Below are positions 35,609 through 49,524 of a stretch of DNA of 64,000 bases, piece by piece (the first letter of the stretch is position 1; each line of letters starts with the position of its first letter). The translations under genes were made by a program, and so were the position numbers. Below the pieces are notes generated by a model. The model saw only the letters and a program-made list of their open reading frames with translations. It was not told where the DNA came from and searched no databases. Origin of the DNA: a virus (taxonomy: Duplodnaviria > Caudoviricetes); IMG/VR virus record IMGVR_UViG_3300035208_004516, positions 1 to 64,000 of that record; one strand, 5' to 3'.

Positions 35609-36292
35609 TTATTGATAAGATAAAATTACATTCTTTAAAGCAGTTTCAATTTTGTAAAGATTTAATATGTAATTTTTATCTCGTTTATATAGTAAATTAC
35701 GTTGAGATATTTTTTTTTTGCATTCTGAATCCTTTATATATTTTTCTTTGAACCATTTTAAAGATCGTTGTAATTTTTTTCTTCTATATTCTGGATCAGT
35801 TGCATATCTTTCTTTCATTCGTTGTAAATGTTTTCTTCTATATTCTACATTAGTTGCATATCTTTCTTTTGTTCGTTGTAACTTTTTTTTTCTATGTTCT
35901 GAATCAATCCAATATTTTTCTTTCTTTCTTTTGTTTAATTTTTTTCTGTATTCTGAATCAGTTGTATATCTTTCTTTCTTCTGTTGTGAATTTTTTCTTT
36001 TGTATTCTGGATCAGTTGCATATCTTTCTTTCTTTCGTTGTAAATGTTTTCTTCTATATTCTGGATCAGTTGCATATCTTTCTTTGTTTCGTTGTAACTT
36101 TTTTTTTCTATATTCTGGATCAGTCTCATATCTTTCTTTCTTTCGTTGTAAATGTTTTCTTCTATATTCTGGATCAGTTGCATATCTTTCTTTCATTCGT
36201 TGTGAAATTTTTTTTTTATATTCTGGATCAGTCTTATATTTATTTTTGCGCCAGTTTTTTATATATTCTTTCCTATAATCTGAAATTTTCAT
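35609..36292 (-). CDS. Highly basic protein of 18-aa (54-bp) tandem repeats
   Basis: About 10 copies of KERYATDPEYRRKxLQRx. Confidence 0.75.
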   Translation of the reverse strand: MKISDYRKEYIKNWRKNKYKTDPEYKKKISQRMKERYATDPEYRRKHLQRKKERYETDPEYRKKKLQRNKERYATDPEYRRKHLQRKKERYATDPEYKRKNSQQKKERYTTDSEYRKKLNKRKKEKYWIDSEHRKKKLQRTKERYATNVEYRRKHLQRMKERYATDPEYRRKKLQRSLKWFKEKYIKDSECKKKISQRNLLYKRDKNYILNLYKIETALKNVILSYQ

Positions 36293-37459: not shown

Positions 37460-40400
37460 ATAAATGTATAATGTTAATAAGTTATTAGAAATGAAAAAGT
37501 AAAATTCGTTGTTGTTGATGATAGTAAGATTTCTTGGTCTCCACTTGTCGTAATTCAAAATTAAGCCTTTTAATGCGTTGTTGGTTGTTTAGTAGGATAT
37601 GGTATTCATTCCTTTATATTTTGGTTATTATATTCTGTGGTTTTGTTTTTTAAGGGTGTTATAGTTTTTAGTTAGTCCGTTGTAAGTAATTATAGTTGAT
37701 CCTTTTTGAATCCGAGATGAGTAGTTCCTTTAAAAACCATTGTAAGTAGAATTGAAAAATTTTATAAAAAAATTTTTATAGGGTGTACTACTTATTATTA
37801 TCCCTATATTTTTGAAATTATAATCTACAAGCTCCTATAATGTCACTTTGTTATAAAATTCATTTTCAAATTTCAAAAAATAGGAAAATCTGAGGCAGCT
37901 ATTAGATCACGTACTTTTACACCCTACGGGGTTACAAATCAAACATATCTTAGGCTACGGGGGCCACCACCCTCTACTACAGTTCTAACTGAACTTATTA
38001 GATACCAAAACAAACATCTAAAACTACTCATCACTTAATTAACAATACGGGTTTATAAAATCCACATAGTCATAAATCAAAACAATGATGATACATACTT
38101 TTTTAATATGAGTAACAAGAATTGATCCAGTTTTTTTATCATATTTTATTTCCTAAACATTTAATATGAATTTTGATAAGTACAATTATATTGATTATTT
38201 AGATACATAACCTAATTTGTTTAACTTTATAATAATTTGTTGTTTTTTTGAATTTCTTGTTTTAAAATCCATGAAACTCCCATAATCATCTCTTTTAAAT
38301 ATATCACTATTTTTATGATATTTAATTTTCAATTGTGGGTAGTATATATAATAAGCTTTTATTTTTGCGCGACTGATACACAGCATGAATAAAAGAGCAG
38401 ATATTTTTTTTCTTTATAACATTGAGCTAATGCATAATCATTAATTTGTTTTTGAAAATGATTTATGATCATTAGATGTTATTCATCCCCTATGAGTAGT
38501 TTATTTTCTATTATCTTAATTCTGGTCATAATTAATTTCCTTCTAATTTTTTGTGTAGAAATAAGACTATACTATTTAAATTATATCTACAATACTTAAT
38601 CCACCCAAGATATTATATTATCTATAACATCTTGCAACCACCCATCTTAATAAAACTATATAGGACAGCGTTTGGTTATTGACCGATCTATACTACTTAT
38701 CCTGTAGCACCTATAATCATCTTAAAATAAGATAACAGAATTAAATTTCCTTAATAACTACTTAAAGTTATTTAAAATCTACTCTATATAATTTATTCAT
38801 TGAAACATATAAGATCGAATTATTAATAAAAAATACAATTCATGAAACAGTATATGAAATATGTATAAACCACCAACAATGGCATTATAAGAGCTTGTAG
38901 AGGAATTTAAGTAAATAAAACAATGACTTTTCTATATAGGTCACAATGAATTTAATAAAAAATATAATAAGATAAACATTAAACAAACAAAAGAAATCTA
39001 GATTAAGTAGAAATTATATAGTTATTAAAAAAATTAATATGTATAATAAACTACTCTATCATTAAACCTTATATATAACAATCATTAATAAGTAACTAAA
39101 TTACAAAATCTATTTATAAAGGATAAAAAATTACTTCTTACTATAAAAACTTGTATATAAACCATAAGTAAAGTATATAAATTCAATAACATCTTGTAAT
39201 ATAAATAACCCATAATAAAGTAGACCATTTATAATAATTTTACTTATAACTATCCTTATTATATAAACAATGACTTCTCCATATAGGTTTCAATGATTTA
39301 ATCTGTTATAAAGTAGTTATTAAAGCAACCTTGAAATCTTATCTCTTTATCCTTATCATTCAATGACTTTCCTATATAGGTCACAATGATTTTTATTTTC
39401 CACTTTATTACTCATAATTTTCTTGTAAGTAGTTGAACTTGTAAGCCGTTACAGAAGAACTTCTTTTAAAAACCTTTTTGATTGATCTATCCATTCCACT
39501 CCATTTCTGTTTTAAAGTGGTTTAATTTAATAATTATTGTGGTTCAATGACTTTCCTGTATAGGTCATCATGATTTTTTATTTTCCTTTGTTAAGTAGTT
39601 TGTCTTCTGATTATCTTGAATGTGTTTTCTGTTGAGTAGTTGATAGTTTTGATTTGTTAGTTGTATAATATGTGTAACCACTTGAACTTGTTAGCCGTTA
39701 TCCAGTTTTAAGTTTTATTCCATCTATTTTTGTTTTTTGTAAAATATTTGTAAGCCAGTATCTAAGTTTAAATTAAGTAGAGTAGTAAAATAGTGATTGA
39801 TTTGTGATAAGATAGAATATGAAAGGATCTGGCTTTCTGTAAAATATTTGTAAGTAGTTGTATTTGTAAGCCAGTATCTAAGTTTAGATTTGGATTGGTG
39901 ATGGGATTTAGATGAGTAGAAATAAGGGTTTTGGAGCAGTTTTAAGTAGATGATAGATTGTGATAAGTAGTCTTTTAACTTACTCTGAGTAGAACAATCT
40001 CTCGGACTTCTACTCACAAATATCTACTCATTAGCAATCAAACAGAATCAAAAACGACATAACAACAGATTCATTAACAGATCAGAATCAAAAACAAAAA
40101 TCTGATTCTCAACAGAAATCAATCAATCTGAAAACTTGATCTTACAAACTGCAAAAAAACCAGGATACAAGAATCAGAAACTACTTATCAAGGATAACAG
40201 TATTATATAGCTACTTAGCAGAGTCAAAAACTAACAAACTCAAAAAACAAACAATAATTAAGAAAATAACATAAAAAACAAAGATAGGACTATATAGACA
40301 GGAGACAACAAGAAAGATAACCAAGGATAAACAACACTAACAAAACCACATTAAACGACTTAAAAGGGATAAAGGAAGATATACAGGACTTACTTTGAAT

Positions 40401-40483: not shown

Positions 40484-41065
40484 ATGATAATATACAAAAA
40501 GTACACAATAGGGATAACATTTAGGATAGAAGTAGGATATTACGTACACAACACAACAGAAAGGATACAAAAGGACACATTATATTACATATCAGATATG
40601 CATCAACTTTTTATATTTACAAAAGAACCAATAGAAATAGAACTTAAGGATATAATCTTAATAGATTTAGAAAGATATAATAAACGATTAAACAACATAG
40701 GCATATATCCAGATCAAATGGAATTAAAAATATTAACAGTATATATAGGGGTAAAAGAAATAACTACCATAGGTACATACAGATTTATAACAACAAACGA
40801 TCCCAGAATGTTTTTTTCATCTAACTTAGTAGTGGATGAAACTACTATACCAGAGATCAACAAAAGATTTATAAGATTATTATCAACTGAAGGTCTAACA
40901 GAATATATAGTAACATGTTGTACATGTAATATAGACATAACAAAAACAACAGCACATTACTTAAAATATCCAGGATACTGTCCAACATGTTTAGGTGACA
41001 AAGGATACGAATCATACAAATCTATATTAGACGCACAGATAGCATACAAACTACTAACAACTTAA
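40484..41065 (+). CDS. Constant-tail Zn-finger paralog 1
   Basis: CxxC...CxxC then DAQIAYKLLTT*. Confidence 0.85.
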   Translation: MIIYKKYTIGITFRIEVGYYVHNTTERIQKDTLYYISDMHQLFIFTKEPIEIELKDIILIDLERYNKRLNNIGIYPDQMELKILTVYIGVKEITTIGTYRFITTNDPRMFFSSNLVVDETTIPEINKRFIRLLSTEGLTEYIVTCCTCNIDITKTTAHYLKYPGYCPTCLGDKGYESYKSILDAQIAYKLLTT

Positions 41066-41081
41066 CAAAGAAAGGAATTTA

Positions 41082-41684
41082 ATGAAGATAGAAGAAGCAT
41101 TATACTTTATAAAGGTAACATTTAAAGATCAAACAACTTTGGATACATTAACAAAATTGGCATTAAAAGAAAAAAGGACTAAACACTTCATAACAATAAA
41201 AAACAAATCATCTACACACTACACTAAATCTGAATTAGAATTTTATTATTATCATAGTATATATGAAACATTTCAACCTGAAATAGCATTAACACAATCT
41301 AAAAACCCTGCACATTATAGACATTTACATGAAACAATACATACTATCAATTACCTTCAAAACATAATAGAATCTTATTTACCATCAGAAACATACAAAG
41401 TAGAAACTGTATATAATTATATAATGACAGGCAAATTACAAATAATATCTAATTATATATTTCACAGTACAGATATTGAATCTTGGAGCATGATTCCATA
41501 CTCAGCAATAATATTTGAACACCTGCCGCAACTACCATTATACATATGTGACAACTGTCATATTTTAACATGTTATGGAACATCCATAGATTATGATCAT
41601 CATTTATGTTCAGTATGTAATAACACATCTAACGATCAAAGGATTAAAGACGCACAGATAGCATACAAACTACTAACAACTTAA
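41082..41684 (+). CDS. Constant-tail Zn-finger paralog 2
   Basis: CDNC...CSVC then DAQIAYKLLTT*. Confidence 0.85.
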   Translation: MKIEEALYFIKVTFKDQTTLDTLTKLALKEKRTKHFITIKNKSSTHYTKSELEFYYYHSIYETFQPEIALTQSKNPAHYRHLHETIHTINYLQNIIESYLPSETYKVETVYNYIMTGKLQIISNYIFHSTDIESWSMIPYSAIIFEHLPQLPLYICDNCHILTCYGTSIDYDHHLCSVCNNTSNDQRIKDAQIAYKLLTT

Positions 41685-41705
41685 CAAAGAAAGGGATAAG
41701 AAGGA

Positions 41706-42326
41706 ATGAAAATAGAACAACTTTACTTTATAAAGGTAACATTTAAAGACGCATTAACATTAGATACATTAATAGAAAAGACAATAATAGAAAAGACAAT
41801 AAGAAGGAAAAGTAATCAAAATTTTATATCAATAACAAACAAAAAGAACAAAGATTCCACTTGTTCTGAATTAGAATTTTACTATGATCGGAGCCCATCT
41901 CTGGCATCTCCATTTGCAATGGCATTAACTCAAACTGAAAAGCCAACACATTATAATTATTTACATGAAACAACAGATACTATCAATTACATCAGTAAAA
42001 TAATGGAATCTTATTTACCATCAGAAACATATAAAATAGAATCTGTATATAATTATATAATAAAAGGCAAAATCCAAATAATATCTGAATATATGTTTCA
42101 CAGTAGAGATATAAAATCTTGGATTATGATTCCATATAATGATAACAACACTAAAAGAAATATACATACACCATTATACATATGTGACAACTGTCATATT
42201 TTAACATATTATGGATCATCTAAAGGTAATAGTTATAATCAACATATATGCGCAGTATGTGATAACACATCTAACGATCAAAGGATTAAAGACGCACAGT
42301 TAGCCTATAAACTATTAACTACTTAA
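41706..42326 (+). CDS. Constant-tail Zn-finger paralog 3
   Basis: CDNC...CAVC then DAQLAYKLLTT*. Confidence 0.85.
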   Translation: MKIEQLYFIKVTFKDALTLDTLIEKTIIEKTIRRKSNQNFISITNKKNKDSTCSELEFYYDRSPSLASPFAMALTQTEKPTHYNYLHETTDTINYISKIMESYLPSETYKIESVYNYIIKGKIQIISEYMFHSRDIKSWIMIPYNDNNTKRNIHTPLYICDNCHILTYYGSSKGNSYNQHICAVCDNTSNDQRIKDAQLAYKLLTT

Positions 42327-42347
42327 AAGGACAAAGAAAGGGATTTA

Positions 42348-42938
42348 ATGAAGATGTACCCATATTACAATATAAAAGTAACATTTAAGAATAAGGAGAC
42401 TATAAATGAATTAAATAGATTACTAACATTTTACAAAGACACATTATTTAACAATTCTTCAAATCAACATTACACTAAATCTGAATTAGAATTTTATTTA
42501 AGCAAACCCTCATTACCAAGTCGAGAATTGACTCAAACTAATTATCCTACATATTATAGACAATTAAAAGATACAAAAAACGATTACAACTTAATAAGTC
42601 ACAAATTAGGAACTTATTTGGATTCTAACTCTTACAGAATAGACACTCTATTAAATTACATATTTATAGGTCAAATATACAACATATCTGAATACATGTT
42701 TTATTATATGCATATTGATTTATATACTATAATTCCATACAGAGGTGCAAATAGAGACAATTCATATGAATCACTATATGCATGTAATAAATGCAACATA
42801 TTAACAACGTCTGCTGAATATTATAATAACCACTTACATGAAATTGATGATCACCATTTATGTCATGTATGCAATGGGACCAGCAATGATCAAAAGATTA
42901 AAGATGCACAAATAGCATACAAACTACTAACAACTTAA
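42348..42938 (+). CDS. Constant-tail Zn-finger paralog 4
   Basis: CNKC...CHVC then DAQIAYKLLTT*. Confidence 0.85.
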   Translation: MKMYPYYNIKVTFKNKETINELNRLLTFYKDTLFNNSSNQHYTKSELEFYLSKPSLPSRELTQTNYPTYYRQLKDTKNDYNLISHKLGTYLDSNSYRIDTLLNYIFIGQIYNISEYMFYYMHIDLYTIIPYRGANRDNSYESLYACNKCNILTTSAEYYNNHLHEIDDHHLCHVCNGTSNDQKIKDAQIAYKLLTT

Positions 42939-42967
42939 CTATTTAAAAACAAGAAAGGAGAGAATAG

Positions 42968-43513
42968 ATGATAATAAACAAAAAATACTGCATAGGAATA
43001 ATAACAAAAGACATTAACTTCTGGAATCGTAATTGGGTAGACAACGATGGATATATGTTAACTAAGTTAACTAAGAACAAAGAATATATTTATTGGTTAA
43101 CTAGTAAATATAACACATTCAGATTATCTTTATATGAAACATTTTATGATGATTTACCAACATGTGAATCTATATATAAAGAATTTCATGAATATATAAC
43201 TACAATGGAATATACAGTGGATATTAATATTTACTCTATTTACATAAAAGTAAAGATACATGATATAGGAACATATAGATTTATAAAATTGAACTCTAAT
43301 AATGATGGTAGGAATACTACTATATTGGATGATAGAGTAGATTCAAACATGTATATTTATATATGTGATAAATGCGGAATTGATCTTAGTGATATAGATG
43401 TACATAAGGATTGTTATAAATCACATTGTCCAGTATGTAAAGAAGACAAAAATCACAAATCTTATCAACAAATAAGAGATGCTCAGATAGCATACAAACT
43501 ACTAACAACTTAA
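42968..43513 (+). CDS. Constant-tail Zn-finger paralog 5
   Basis: CDKC...CPVC then DAQIAYKLLTT*. Confidence 0.85.
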   Translation: MIINKKYCIGIITKDINFWNRNWVDNDGYMLTKLTKNKEYIYWLTSKYNTFRLSLYETFYDDLPTCESIYKEFHEYITTMEYTVDINIYSIYIKVKIHDIGTYRFIKLNSNNDGRNTTILDDRVDSNMYIYICDKCGIDLSDIDVHKDCYKSHCPVCKEDKNHKSYQQIRDAQIAYKLLTT

Positions 43514-43531
43514 CAAGAAAGAAGATAAATA

Positions 43532-44065
43532 ATGATGATACAAAAGAAATACATAATAGGAATAACAACTCAAGATACAAAGTTCTGGAATTACAAATGG
43601 ATGGATGAAGATACGTATTTAACAAAAAGCACTAATAAATATATCATTTATTTTTTATATTTTCAAAATGACAATATGAAACTATCTAAAAATCCAACAT
43701 ATTATTACACAAGTATAAACTTATTAAAATCTCGAATTGTAGAATTTAATATGTTTCTATTAATCAACAATTATAAAGCAGATGTTAAAATATATACTAT
43801 TTATATAAATATACCATCTATTTATAACATAGGAATATATAGATTTTTCACAATTGAATATAATACTAGACATATAATATTAGATAATAAGATAGATTCA
43901 ACGTATACTCATATTTGTGATAAATGCGGAATTGATCTTAGTGATATAGATGTACAGATGGATTGTGATAAAGCTTGTTGTCCAGCATGTAAAGAAAATA
44001 AAAACCACAAATTTTATCAACAAATAAGAGATGCACAATTAGCATTAAAATTAATTAATTCGTAG
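43532..44065 (+). CDS. Constant-tail Zn-finger paralog 6
   Basis: CDKC...CPAC then DAQLALKLINS*. Confidence 0.85.
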   Translation: MMIQKKYIIGITTQDTKFWNYKWMDEDTYLTKSTNKYIIYFLYFQNDNMKLSKNPTYYYTSINLLKSRIVEFNMFLLINNYKADVKIYTIYINIPSIYNIGIYRFFTIEYNTRHIILDNKIDSTYTHICDKCGIDLSDIDVQMDCDKACCPACKENKNHKFYQQIRDAQLALKLINS

Positions 44066-44077
44066 AAAGGAGAACGT

Positions 44078-44606
44078 ATGAATACAATGCAAATGAATGG
44101 TATACATTTAGATATAGGATGTGGATATGGAAAGATTCAAGGATACGTAGGGATGGATAAAAAGATATAAAAGGACATGTTGATATAGTTCATGACATGG
44201 AAACATTTCCATATCCACTCAGCTCAGATTCATGTGAAACTATCAGATGCAATCAAGTAGTAGAACATTTAAAACCATGGTTAATAATGGACATATTTGA
44301 TGAAATGTGGAGAATACTTATAGAAACTGGAAAGATATACATAACAACACCAGTAGCTGGATCTTTTCTATTTGAATTAGATCCAACTCATACAAAAGGA
44401 TGGACTAAGAACACAATTCAATATTTTGATCCAAGGAGATTCTTATATTCAATATACAGATCAAAACCATGGTTAATAAGATCTATAGAAGAAAAAATGA
44501 CATATTAACATTTATAATAGAAAAGATATCAGAAACAGAAGGTGACAGACTATACAAAGAATCTCAAATAAAAGGATTTGATAAAGAAATAAAATTGATA
44601 CTATAG
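44078..44606 (+). CDS. Class I SAM methyltransferase with two poly-A frameshifts
   Basis: HLDIGCG..K..GYVGMD, DIVHD...FPYP, VVEHL, DE.WRIL...G, DPTH; indels near 44160 and 44495. Confidence 0.75.
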
Positions 44607-44617
44607 AAAGGAGATAA

Positions 44618-45154
44618 ATGATAATTAGTCATGGAATGAATTTTTTAAAAGTAAAATTTCACAATTTAAATCTTTTAAAATGGTTAATTAATTCAGATAT
44701 AATAAAAATAGAAACTAGCAATGGGGAAGGATATATTAATGAGTTACAAATAGATCCAATATCAATAAGAAGAAAAATTGAATATACCAATAATTATTAT
44801 ATATCAACTTCACCTCTTAATTTTTCTCATGTTATTGCATTATTGACTTATTATTGCAAAAAGGAAGATTTGGATATAAACGTAGGATTTTTATTTCATT
44901 CTTATTATTATACATTAGTAACTGTTGGAAATTATGAATTTATTATAGAATCTGAAGTACCTAATCATTTTGAATCCTATCAAACTACTAAAAATGAAAT
45001 AACCATATGTACACAATGCAATATTAATGCTAGTAATATAACTTACGATACTCAAGATTTTGATTGTATATGTGATGTATGTAGAAATAAAAAAGTAAAG
45101 GATAAGGAGAAAATAAAAGCTGCACAAATAGCATATAAACTGATATATCAATAG
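44618..45154 (+). CDS. Constant-tail Zn-finger paralog 7
   Basis: CTQC...CDVC then AAQIAYKLIYQ*. Confidence 0.8.
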   Translation: MIISHGMNFLKVKFHNLNLLKWLINSDIIKIETSNGEGYINELQIDPISIRRKIEYTNNYYISTSPLNFSHVIALLTYYCKKEDLDINVGFLFHSYYYTLVTVGNYEFIIESEVPNHFESYQTTKNEITICTQCNINASNITYDTQDFDCICDVCRNKKVKDKEKIKAAQIAYKLIYQ

Positions 45155-45164
45155 AAAGGAGAAT

Positions 45165-45689
45165 ATGAAAATATCTAATAAAGCTATAATAGAATGTATT
45201 TTTGAATATAATAATTTAAAAAGATACATAGACAATTCTGATATTGAATTAAGTGATGGAGTCATATTACCTGATAAAAAATATATAAAATTATACTATC
45301 ATTACATAAATTCTACCTCATACGCATTTAGAATCGATGCTCGATGCTGTACAATGTCTAATAAATCTGATTGTGAAATTATTAAAAAAAGCATTACAGA
45401 ACAATTCATATCAAAGAATATTAAAGCTAACATTAAAATTTCATCAATAGTCTGTTTACCAGGGAAATTATACACAATAAATAATTATAGATTTTGTAAT
45501 ATATATGAATCTTTAAATGGAGATATGATAAAAACAAAATATCATATTTTAATATGTGATAAATGCGGATTGATAGATTATCATATGAAAAATAGAAGAT
45601 ATCAAAATATATGCGAATCATGTATTGGACAATCTAAAAATCAAAAATTGAAAGATGCTCAACTTATATTTGAATTGATGCGTCAATAA
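45165..45689 (+). CDS. Constant-tail Zn-finger paralog 8 (most diverged)
   Basis: CDKC...CESC then DAQLIFELMRQ*. Confidence 0.75.
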   Translation: MKISNKAIIECIFEYNNLKRYIDNSDIELSDGVILPDKKYIKLYYHYINSTSYAFRIDARCCTMSNKSDCEIIKKSITEQFISKNIKANIKISSIVCLPGKLYTINNYRFCNIYESLNGDMIKTKYHILICDKCGLIDYHMKNRRYQNICESCIGQSKNQKLKDAQLIFELMRQ

Positions 45690-47056: not shown

Positions 47057-48232
47057 ATGAATATCACGGAAGAAATTAATTATTACATTGATATATTTCT
47101 TGATAATTTTCAAATGATGTGTTCAAAAGAACATGCAGATGAACTTATAACTGCCCACATTGAAAATCTATTAACAGAAAATTATGAAAAGAAGATATCA
47201 AAAAAAGAAACATATGCAGAATTAAGAAAAAGTATTTTGGTTATAAAAGTGATAAACAAAATCACAACTTATTTAATAATAAGATTCAATCGTAACAAAG
47301 ACAAACAACTTCTTAATTTTGAATATCTAAGAATCTTTTTTATATCTGATAAAGATGGAGAAGGTAATACAACTAACAAAGGCACCTTCTTTGTCAAATT
47401 TCCAGACTTATTTACTACTAAAGTATTTATAATATTATCTCATGTATTGGATCGTATAAATTTAAGATTAGACGAAAAGAAAACAAAAACGATAAGATAC
47501 GCTGGAGAAAAATTCCCAGACAGAATAGATGCTTTAGCAGAATTATTAGAGTCATGTAATTTTTTAATAGATGTATATCATTCTACGGAACAAAATGATA
47601 GTATATCTTCAATAGAGTATGGATCATTCCTTGGACACATAACAACAACATTTATTAAAAAATACAATCGTCCATTCATATTTGTGTTTTGGAAAACATT
47701 TATTGATAATAAATTACTAAGAGATGATCAATTGGAAAGAATTTCAAAATCTCAAAAGTTAGAGGAATTAGAAAGATCATTTCTTAAAGATATAGTATCA
47801 ATTATTTCTACAGAAGATATAAAAAGTGTTAATAAAGATCAAAATTTAACACAGATTTTTACTAAATCACTAATTAAATCTTCTAAAGCAAAAGTATCTT
47901 TCGGAATGAATAATGATGCAAAGATAACAGATTGCATTCAAAAAATGAGAGTATGTTTTATAGAAAAAGAATTCGATTTATTCTATCATGGAAAGAAATA
48001 CTATCTCATGTTAATATATTCATTTCTTATAAACAATGGAAAAATAGAAAAGAATGAACATCAATGTATAGAAAGTATAAGAAAAATCGAACCGCCTTGG
48101 CCAAAAGGGACTCCATATTGGTTAGGTATTTTTCCAGAATTAGATTCTGAAAATACTGAATTTAGAAAAGCATTTAATGATGCTTGCAACGAATGTAAAA
48201 AAATATTAAATGAGGAAGGAATTTATGAATGA
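47057..48232 (+). CDS. Hypothetical protein
   Basis: 391-aa ORF in operon context. Confidence 0.7.
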   Translation: MNITEEINYYIDIFLDNFQMMCSKEHADELITAHIENLLTENYEKKISKKETYAELRKSILVIKVINKITTYLIIRFNRNKDKQLLNFEYLRIFFISDKDGEGNTTNKGTFFVKFPDLFTTKVFIILSHVLDRINLRLDEKKTKTIRYAGEKFPDRIDALAELLESCNFLIDVYHSTEQNDSISSIEYGSFLGHITTTFIKKYNRPFIFVFWKTFIDNKLLRDDQLERISKSQKLEELERSFLKDIVSIISTEDIKSVNKDQNLTQIFTKSLIKSSKAKVSFGMNNDAKITDCIQKMRVCFIEKEFDLFYHGKKYYLMLIYSFLINNGKIEKNEHQCIESIRKIEPPWPKGTPYWLGIFPELDSENTEFRKAFNDACNECKKILNEEGIYE

Positions 48233-49524
48233 GAAAAATAAATAGAGTTCATTTTACGATTACAGGTGAATGGCTAACTTGGATGCTCAGACATTTATGG
48301 GTAGAAGGCAGTGAAGTAAAAGCTGTCAATGTATGGTGTGGAGCATTTCCCAAATTATCTAGTGAAAAAATAATCAAAACACATTTTCTTAATGTCGTGT
48401 CAGGCAGAAAGAAACTTGTTGGTAATAATGAATATGACCTTGTGGATGATGATAAAAAATATTGGAGTACATATCAAGATGGGGAAGAAAATACTGATTT
48501 TCCTCTACTTCAAAGTTGGGAAGATGTAATTCTCCTAAAAAAAGTAAAATTGTATTTTTCCGAGATGGATCTTCGAGCAGTCAGATTGAACAGAAGATTT
48601 GCCACTACTCAAAAAGGCAATGGAAATAATTCTATGAGATGGGAACAAGCGGTAGAAGAAAATAAGGTAGAAAATGTTTATCGCAAACACGTAAGTGATA
48701 ATTGGTCAGAAATCAGGAATTTAACAATGCGTTTGAAAATGGATCTGGATTTACAAATACTTACAGCACCTGATGCTCCACTTCCTGTTACTCTTACATT
48801 CAATACCAAAAAAGCATATTTTTCTAAATCTCAAAAAATTAATGGAAACATCGATCAATGTTTTAATTTACAAGATGAGATTGAAGCGATTCTTACACCG
48901 ATAAGAATTTATTTTGAAACAAAATATGAAGGTCATATTCATATTAATGACACAATGAATTACAGTGGATTATCTCAGTTCAATAAATGGGATGTTGCCG
49001 CAGAAGAAAAACGAAGAGGAAAAGAATCAAATATTAGCAAATTAGCTCTTGAAGAACGAGATCAAGAGAATAAATCAGAATCTTTGATTGAAAAAGTTGA
49101 AAAGGGTAAATCTTTAGATGTTATGGCTTATGTCCATAATCTTCTTGAAGATAGCAAACGTGAAGATCGCTTTAAACCAGATCATCCAGAAAATACTAAA
49201 TGGACTTCAGGGTATATTGATAGAGAAGGAAGACTTTATGCATGTGCTGATTTACAGCATATTAATTTTGCTGATGAATTGTGTATACATTTCGGATTGA
49301 AACAAAAAGAATCGGATGAAGATGGACAAATTATATTAGATAATGTAGGATGGATAAAAATATCATTATTAAGATTTTTTTGGGAAGAGACTAAAAAAAT
49401 TACAGATTCTCAAAAAGAAACAATTTTAAAATATATGATAGCAAAAAAAATAAAAAAGACTCTTTTTAATTCTATATCATCATATAATTTAAAAACATTT
49501 GATGAACAATTTAATTCAGAATAA
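48229..49524 (+). CDS. Hypothetical protein
   Basis: 431-aa ORF, ATGA overlap with upstream gene. Confidence 0.75.
   Translation: MRKINRVHFTITGEWLTWMLRHLWVEGSEVKAVNVWCGAFPKLSSEKIIKTHFLNVVSGRKKLVGNNEYDLVDDDKKYWSTYQDGEENTDFPLLQSWEDVILLKKVKLYFSEMDLRAVRLNRRFATTQKGNGNNSMRWEQAVEENKVENVYRKHVSDNWSEIRNLTMRLKMDLDLQILTAPDAPLPVTLTFNTKKAYFSKSQKINGNIDQCFNLQDEIEAILTPIRIYFETKYEGHIHINDTMNYSGLSQFNKWDVAAEEKRRGKESNISKLALEERDQENKSESLIEKVEKGKSLDVMAYVHNLLEDSKREDRFKPDHPENTKWTSGYIDREGRLYACADLQHINFADELCIHFGLKQKESDEDGQIILDNVGWIKISLLRFFWEETKKITDSQKETILKYMIAKKIKKTLFNSISSYNLKTFDEQFNSE

Follow-up and report, generated by a model that had tools for sequence, protein, structure and literature searches.

Conserved nucleotide blocks serve as recombination sites in clusters of tandem paralogues, as described for the lpl genes of Staphylococcus aureus (Tsuru and Kobayashi 2008, PMC2568036). 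Recombination at conserved blocks has also been described for the immunity genes esaG and streptococcal tipC, the tipC blocks being located at the 5' and 3' ends of the genes (Garrett et al. 2022, PMC9484751). In T4-type phages, PeSL (promoter-early stem-loop) cassettes lie between genes and combine a sigma-70-type promoter, preceded by an AT-rich region, with a stable stem-loop that serves as terminator or attenuator (Arbiol et al. 2010, PMC2839356). Here we analysed an array of eight tandem paralogues (g1 to g8; 40484-45689, all on the + strand) in a virus of the Caudoviricetes (Duplodnaviria). The array lies in the first 64 kb (positions 1 to 64,000, hereafter the window) of the uncultured-virus contig IMGVR_UViG_3300035208_004516, which is 100,327 bp in full; the record is estimated by CheckV to be ~51% complete, so that the contig represents about half of the genome. 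Four of the eight genes end in the same 28-mer, ATAGCATACAAACTACTAACAACTTAAC, which spans the stop codon. These identical gene tails probably result from repeated short-tract gene conversion, seeded in the most conserved segment of an operon of eight orphan paralogues.

Among the described systems, the lpl, esaG and tipC conserved-block clusters are the closest known counterparts of this array. As in those clusters, non-identical and co-oriented tandem paralogues share short, near-identical nucleotide blocks, and the phylogeny differs across the block, here as a conflict between the tree of the gene bodies and the tails. The lpl unit runs from the 3' end of one gene through the spacer to the next gene, a layout also seen in the longest identical tract between g1 and g2. 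The present array differs from all three in its phage host, in its orphan gene family and in its block, which is only 28-47 bp long and found in four of the eight copies. For lpl and esaG, the gain, loss and re-ordering of copies between strains have been documented, whereas a single genome was read here.

An exact search confirmed that the 28-mer occurs at 41039, 41658, 42912 and 43487, as stated in an earlier note made from the letters of the window alone. All four copies are on the + strand and lie at the ends of g1 (41039-41066), g2 (41658-41685), g4 (42912-42939) and g5 (43487-43514), where they take in the eight C-terminal codons (IAYKLLTT), the TAA stop codon and one further nucleotide. 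The 28-mer is not present in g3, g6, g7 or g8. No other match was found at up to three mismatches, none was found in 100 shuffles and 0 were expected. Equally, the remainder of the 100,327-bp contig has no copy of it; the site that comes closest is the g3 tail, with six mismatches.

The extent of identity around the 28-mer depends on the pair of genes compared. Maximal exact tail matches are 47 bp for g1/g2, 33 bp for g1/g5 and g2/g5 (43484-43516 in g5) and 28 bp for the matches with g4, so that the tract ends are nested. The 47-bp tract shared by g1 and g2 (41029-41075, identical to 41648-41694, + strand) is the longest repeat of the region; it starts at the tail's Asp codon, crosses the stop codon and reaches into the ribosome-binding site (RBS) of the next gene. 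That g1 and g2 share this tract despite bodies that can barely be aligned, as had been noticed before, is real: the two proteins are 25% identical, with 45% DNA identity over the aligned columns. The tail of g3 differs from the 28-mer at 6 of 28 nt, and over the 36-nt consensus it shows five differences, four of them synonymous and one changing Ile to Leu, so as to encode DAQLAYKLLTT; the near-identity of this peptide had also been correctly observed. The tail peptide is selected as well, since g3 keeps it through synonymous changes.

Codon usage does not account for the identical tails. The tail is written in rare codons (CTA twice, CAG, TAC and GAC), with genome-wide shares of 8% for GAC, 11% for CAG, 13% for TAC and 7% for CTA. 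These codons are rare even inside the array, whose gene bodies use CTA at 7-8% and CAG at 2-4% (CAG in 1 of 37 body Gln codons). Given the peptide, the chance of one copy using these eight codons is 1-2e-4. Codon bias as the cause of tail identity was therefore ruled out, and the synonymous identity lies above what codon bias plus recent duplication, the outcome that the earlier note had set against its own reading, would give.

Phylogenetic analysis of the gene bodies gave a different grouping from that of the tails. In the maximum likelihood body tree, g2, g3 and g4 form one group (support 98/99) and g5 and g6 another (86/91), and the branches leading to g1, g7 and g8 are 1.9-3.1 substitutions per site long. 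It is implausible that the synonymous sites of the tails are identical by descent, because the bodies are far too diverged. In triplet tests, in which the tail was taken as the last 28-36 nt plus 10 nt downstream, sites placing g2 with its sister g3 versus g1 numbered 199 vs 31 in the body and 0 vs 11 in the tail (nominal Fisher p=1.4e-9). Similarly, sites placing g5 with its sister g6 versus g1 numbered 133 vs 47 in the body and 3 vs 14 in the tail (nominal Fisher p about 1e-6). In a Sawyer-type permutation of polymorphic sites, all tail runs gave p<=0.001, the floor of the test. The gene-conversion tests that the earlier note had proposed thus came out positive. Neither codon bias nor shared descent is enough to produce the tail identity, and the phylogenetic signal switches at the tail.

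We propose the following process for the homogenisation of the tails. Nowhere does the DNA of the family diverge more slowly than in the helix codons, the stop codon and the adjoining downstream RBS, and this slow divergence would keep the tail the best substrate for homologous pairing between copies. Misaligned copies may then have undergone repeated, short-tract, non-reciprocal exchange, either by gene conversion or by replication template switching. In this way the last 28-47 bp of g1, g2, g4 and g5 would have been overwritten with one sequence long after the bodies had diverged, and g3, g6, g7 and g8 would have escaped overwriting. The process may also feed back on itself, in that the slowest-diverging segment would remain recombinogenic and would be homogenised further.

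Every identical tract is 28-47 bp long, with diverged sequence on both flanks and end points that differ by pair. We infer conversion rather than crossover, because both flanks of the tracts are diverged and no duplicated unit is present. A recent unequal crossover would leave long identical segments, and none exist; a crossover that deletes genes would leave one hybrid tail only, not four identical tails on diverged bodies. Both were rejected. The minimum that homologous or slippage-type recombination requires is about the length of these 28-bp repeats or just below it. From the geometry of the repeats, rare crossovers between these stop-spanning direct copies would be expected to delete or duplicate whole intact genes as a by-product; the unit sizes between copies are 575, 619, 1254, 1829, 1873 and 2448 bp. 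The earlier proposal of recombination at the gene ends is upheld in so far as the tail identity is in excess and the tree switches there. Its extension to the excision, duplication or swapping of whole genes goes beyond the short patches seen at this locus, in which no unit is duplicated.

The same holds for the accordion behaviour that had been suggested. Genomic accordions, such as that of poxvirus K3L, involve the transient tandem amplification and collapse of a gene. The present locus resembles them in its tandem layout, where copy number can be altered when one copy recombines with another by homology. Accordions, however, consist of recent, near-identical copies of whole genes, whereas the copies here are ancient and only their last 28-47 bp have been homogenised. 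A recent accordion is excluded for the array, in which the closest pair, g2/g3, is only 78% identical in DNA (62% in protein) and every other pair is lower. A gene accordion case is also reported for S. aureus (PMC7360770).

Further identical patches are found within the gene bodies. All of those reported earlier for the pairs 2/3, 2/4 and 5/6 exist; only the one shared by g2 and g4 stands out, and the remainder fit sister similarity or constraint. This 28-bp patch (41220-41247, identical to 42471-42498, + strand) differs in the sister gene g3 (permutation p=0.002) and is plausibly a second conversion tract. Between g2 and g3 the other patches are 38, 38, 26 and 26 bp long, and their long runs are marginally over expectation (permutation p=0.026) in a sister pair that is 78% identical. 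Between g5 and g6, a sister pair with 68% nucleotide identity, the patches are 41 and 21 bp long and the runs coincide with the zinc knuckle, which is under constraint. Sister-pair similarity plus zinc-knuckle constraint fits the runs of both pairs, and the mosaic is weaker there than at the tails. We also observed 15-18 identical bp at the first zinc knuckle (ATATGTGATAAATGCGGA) of g5, g6 and the distant g8 (43361, 43916 and 45552), with the same TGT...TGC codons. By an estimate from codon frequencies this identity is not significant; it could be another small conversion tract.

Several other explanations of the identical tails were weighed against gene conversion. That the 28-mer is a functional nucleotide-level element at the gene end, kept identical by purifying selection, appears unlikely. 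It might act as an unstructured, A/C-rich translation enhancer or coupling signal, as an RNA processing site, or as a binding site for a phage protein or a small RNA. The 28-mer is indeed A/C-rich and unstructured (0 kcal/mol as RNA) and lies directly 5' of the Shine-Dalgarno sequence of the next gene, a loosely similar stretch (ACAAACTA...CAAC...AGAAAGG) occurs in the leader upstream of g1, and codon choices atypical for the array are what is expected if the bases themselves matter. Nevertheless, the 28-mer is absent from four of the eight paralogues, which belong to the same operon and have the same kind of junction. The length of identity varies by pair (47, 33 or 28 bp), and an enhancer role would not require base-perfect identity. 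Nor was a signal detected: the 28-mer matched no Rfam family and occurred nowhere else in the contig, the junctions folded no better than shuffles (z -1.3 to +0.7), no terminator-like sites were found, and promoter-like sites showed no excess and none lay at the junctions. Less likely still is that the 28-mer is a recombination site maintained within the coding sequence, with a PeSL-like function, by which the phage would vary how many and which host-interaction (possibly anti-defence) genes are carried within a population, through scarless deletion or duplication of whole genes or through mini-circles. A dedicated cassette-exchange system, either integron-like or a coding-region counterpart of PeSL, that regularly cuts out, circularises, duplicates or swaps entire genes, and in which the 28-mer would be the crossover site and the unrelated methyltransferase-like gene between g6 and g7 a captured cassette, is very improbable. 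The direct repeats do span the stop at gene boundaries, so that exchange would move whole intact genes, and an unrelated gene does lie inside the array. Similarly, PeSL-mediated mini-circles have been documented in T4-type phages (PMC2839356).

In both the array and the PeSL cassettes, short repeats mark the gene boundaries; the surroundings are a plastic part of the genome of a large, lytic-type phage, with many genes of unknown function, and an exchange between direct copies would remove, duplicate or circularise entire genes. In contrast to PeSL, the repeat here is coding sequence plus stop, with neither a stem-loop nor a promoter, and the spacers of 10-29 nt are too small to hold both. No junction promoter and no stable stem-loop were found at the array, and PeSL-type cassettes are thus absent from it. 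Moreover, shuffling between related genomes and mini-circles have been demonstrated for PeSL, whereas here there is sequence only. PeSL-mediated shuffling may be considered analogous in outcome, not in anatomy. Integrons likewise consist of a row of co-oriented genes with a repeated sequence at each 3' end. Unlike in integrons, the repeat forms part of the coding sequence, the array consists of paralogues and not of unrelated cassettes, and no attC-type imperfect palindrome is present: the 28-mer has no self-complementarity, and no local inverted repeats were found at the array gene ends. Equally, a search for the IntI-type tyrosine recombinase family (PF00589, Phage_integrase) gave no match at E<=1 in the 100-kb contig (~51% of the genome), in which the controls were matched. 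The integron-like behaviour put forward in the earlier note was therefore not borne out. There is no recently duplicated unit, the tracts are patches and not crossover products, and the methyltransferase-like gene is flanked by a different repeat. The cassette reading has no positive support, and nothing indicates an evolved, enzyme-directed cassette system. Least probable of all, in our view, is an artefact of metagenome assembly or polishing, with diverged reads collapsed or the gene order mis-joined at repeats. The contig does come from an uncultured virus and is about 51% complete, and the two frame breaks of the methyltransferase-like gene at homopolymer A-runs could be sequencing errors. 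However, 28-47 bp is below ordinary read length, so that reads span the repeats, and the flanks of every copy are unique; the same g1 and g3 proteins are present on a second contig and in several sources, and all eight open reading frames (ORFs) are intact.

Repeated short-tract gene conversion therefore has to be set against a small number of points that weigh against it. With only one genome at hand, the events themselves are not observed, nor can donor and recipient be told apart. Identity at shared rare codons would likewise follow from purifying selection that maintains a nucleotide-level element in four of the copies and is relaxed in g3 and g6; this is disfavoured because of the nested tract ends and the lack of a detectable signal, and on those grounds alone. 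The breakpoints of the triplet tests were picked post hoc and their p-values are nominal, although the result survived correction for about 700 breakpoints. Finally, RecA, RecT and ERF were not found in the contig, which holds about half of the genome.

The array itself is larger than the six genes implied before, as eight members were found and no further family member is present outside g1-g8 in the 100,327-bp contig. g1 (40484-41065, 193 aa) was recognised from the ORF list, the family alignment and a profile match, and ends in the consensus 28-mer. It is followed by g2 (41082-41684, 200 aa), whose body is sister to g3 and whose tail is identical to that of g1, by g3 (41706-42326, 206 aa) with its near-identical tail peptide, and by g4 (42348-42938, 196 aa), which again ends in the consensus 28-mer. 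The body of g5 (42968-43513, 181 aa) is sister to g6 and its tail is identical to those of g1, g2 and g4. g6 (43532-44065, 177 aa) has a diverged tail, which differs at 12 of 28 nt, and a TAG stop. g7 (44618-45154, 178 aa) and g8 (45165-45689, 174 aa) were both recognised from the family alignment and profile matches; the tail of g7 is diverged and that of g8 is the most diverged of all. All eight genes are on the + strand, and pairwise protein identity within the array is 19-62%. The array looks like one operon, tightly packed and co-oriented, because the spacers between its genes are 10-29 nt and every one of them contains a Shine-Dalgarno sequence. The base composition switches near 40000 from T/G-rich to A/C-rich, and the third codon position then changes gradually within the array: A makes up 58% in g1 and about 42% in g4-g7, and T increases from 21% (g1) to 46% (g7). 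The consensus tail, which is A/C-rich, is similar to the start of this gradient at g1.

In the proteins of the array, a variable N-domain of the alpha/beta type is combined with a Cys4 zinc ribbon and with a conserved C-terminal helix carrying the motif [DA]AQ[IL][AI][YLF][KE]L. These elements were all present in the AlphaFold model of g5 (predicted local distance difference test, pLDDT, 80.6), in which the C-terminal helix (residues 166-180) was modelled confidently (pLDDT about 90). No significant family was found for the array proteins in Pfam or PHROGs, and a Foldseek search of the g5 model against PDB and BFVD returned nothing at E<=0.001. The best match of the model in VIA-align was to ClpS with Z 4.7, inside the noise range, and the C-terminal module searched alone gave a best Z of 2.0. 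A GIY-YIG homing endonuclease, suggested as a lead by a protein atlas, was rejected: the cosine of 0.83 was at chance level, there was no Pfam match at E<=1, a PDB profile search retrieved rubredoxin-like zinc knuckles only, and the invariant columns of the family alignment are just M, Y, F, four Cys, A, Q and L. We conjecture that the array encodes diversified early host-interaction proteins that dock on one partner, because a variable body is combined with a zinc ribbon and a constant helix, and because the array heads the plus-strand gene block right after a non-coding region.

Relatives of the family were searched for in a range of public collections. A pattern search and tblastn of IMG/VR found only the proteins of the window itself, and no family relative beyond these was found in a word-indexed search of 5.8 billion proteins or in a profile search of 1.84 billion representatives. 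No match beyond the window's own was obtained for the exact 28-mer when IMG/VR and the JGI metagenomes were searched, nor for a 24-mer in the GTDB genomes. Similarly, the array family was not found elsewhere in profile-guided scans of metagenome and genome contigs, nor in GenBank phages by tblastn and megablast. On these searches the array proteins appear to be an orphan family, without a relative among about 15 billion public proteins. Proteins identical to g1 and g3 are recorded on a second contig, with NCBI, JGI/IMG and ENA as sources; this is probably a 13.4-kb NCBI contig, on which g8 is called shorter.

Between g6 and g7 lies a small class I S-adenosylmethionine (SAM)-methyltransferase-like gene (44078-44606, + strand), which is unrelated to the array family. 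It carries an LDIGCGYG motif and has weak matches to Methyltransf_11 and to phage methyltransferases. The gene is in three reading-frame pieces, with breaks at A-runs near 44160 and 44490, and is either decaying or affected by homopolymer sequencing error. It had been suggested as a possible captured cassette; the 28-mer does not flank it, and the tail of g6, immediately upstream, differs at 12 of 28 nt. Instead, the 11-mer TAGAAAGGAGA, which combines a TAG stop with a strong Shine-Dalgarno sequence, is found on the + strand at 44063-44073, 44604 and 45152 and nowhere else in the contig. These sites are the consecutive junctions g6/methyltransferase, methyltransferase/g7 and g7/g8, and the gene is therefore flanked by an 11-bp direct repeat. 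Such flanks would fit insertion of the gene, or its loss, through microhomology where stop and RBS adjoin; an equally good explanation of the 11-mer is a strong RBS that directly follows a TAG stop.

The contig as a whole has a G+C content of 25% and no end repeats, and its recognisable genes are few, encoding tail, baseplate and virion proteins, an RNA ligase and NHL-repeat proteins. For one structural protein of the contig, even the closest relatives reach just 37-43% identity. The upstream neighbour of the array is a gene-poor, repeat-rich stretch (~4 kb) with candidate regulatory or origin repeats. Four tandem 54-nt repeats and a 41-nt family (TTCAATGACTTTCCTATATAGGTCACAATGA...) in four copies are listed there within 36003-36272 and 38919-39583, and CTTTGAATATAGGA occurs twice, at 40393 and 40427, just 5' of g1. 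Downstream of the array, an ORF at 48229-49524 (431 aa) shows 81% protein and 85% DNA identity to a gene on IMGVR_UViG_3300037067_017690 (105,868 bp), located at 10001-11275 of the relative's segment. That record has no other likeness to the 20 kb around the ORF and no member of the array family. It seems, therefore, that two large phages have exchanged this one gene. Two other flanking genes used as synteny queries gave no matches.

The locus presents, in a new and orphan family of phage genes, a real and well-supported instance of an evolutionary process that is already known. It provides a clean statistical case of concerted evolution limited to the last few codons of tandem phage genes, and the recombination signal is as multigene-family theory predicts. 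The array also indicates that, even in a strongly diverged family, a seed for recombination can be preserved by a conserved peptide module. If it is true that whole genes come and go at these repeats, large phages would be able to tune an accessory gene family without dedicated enzymes.

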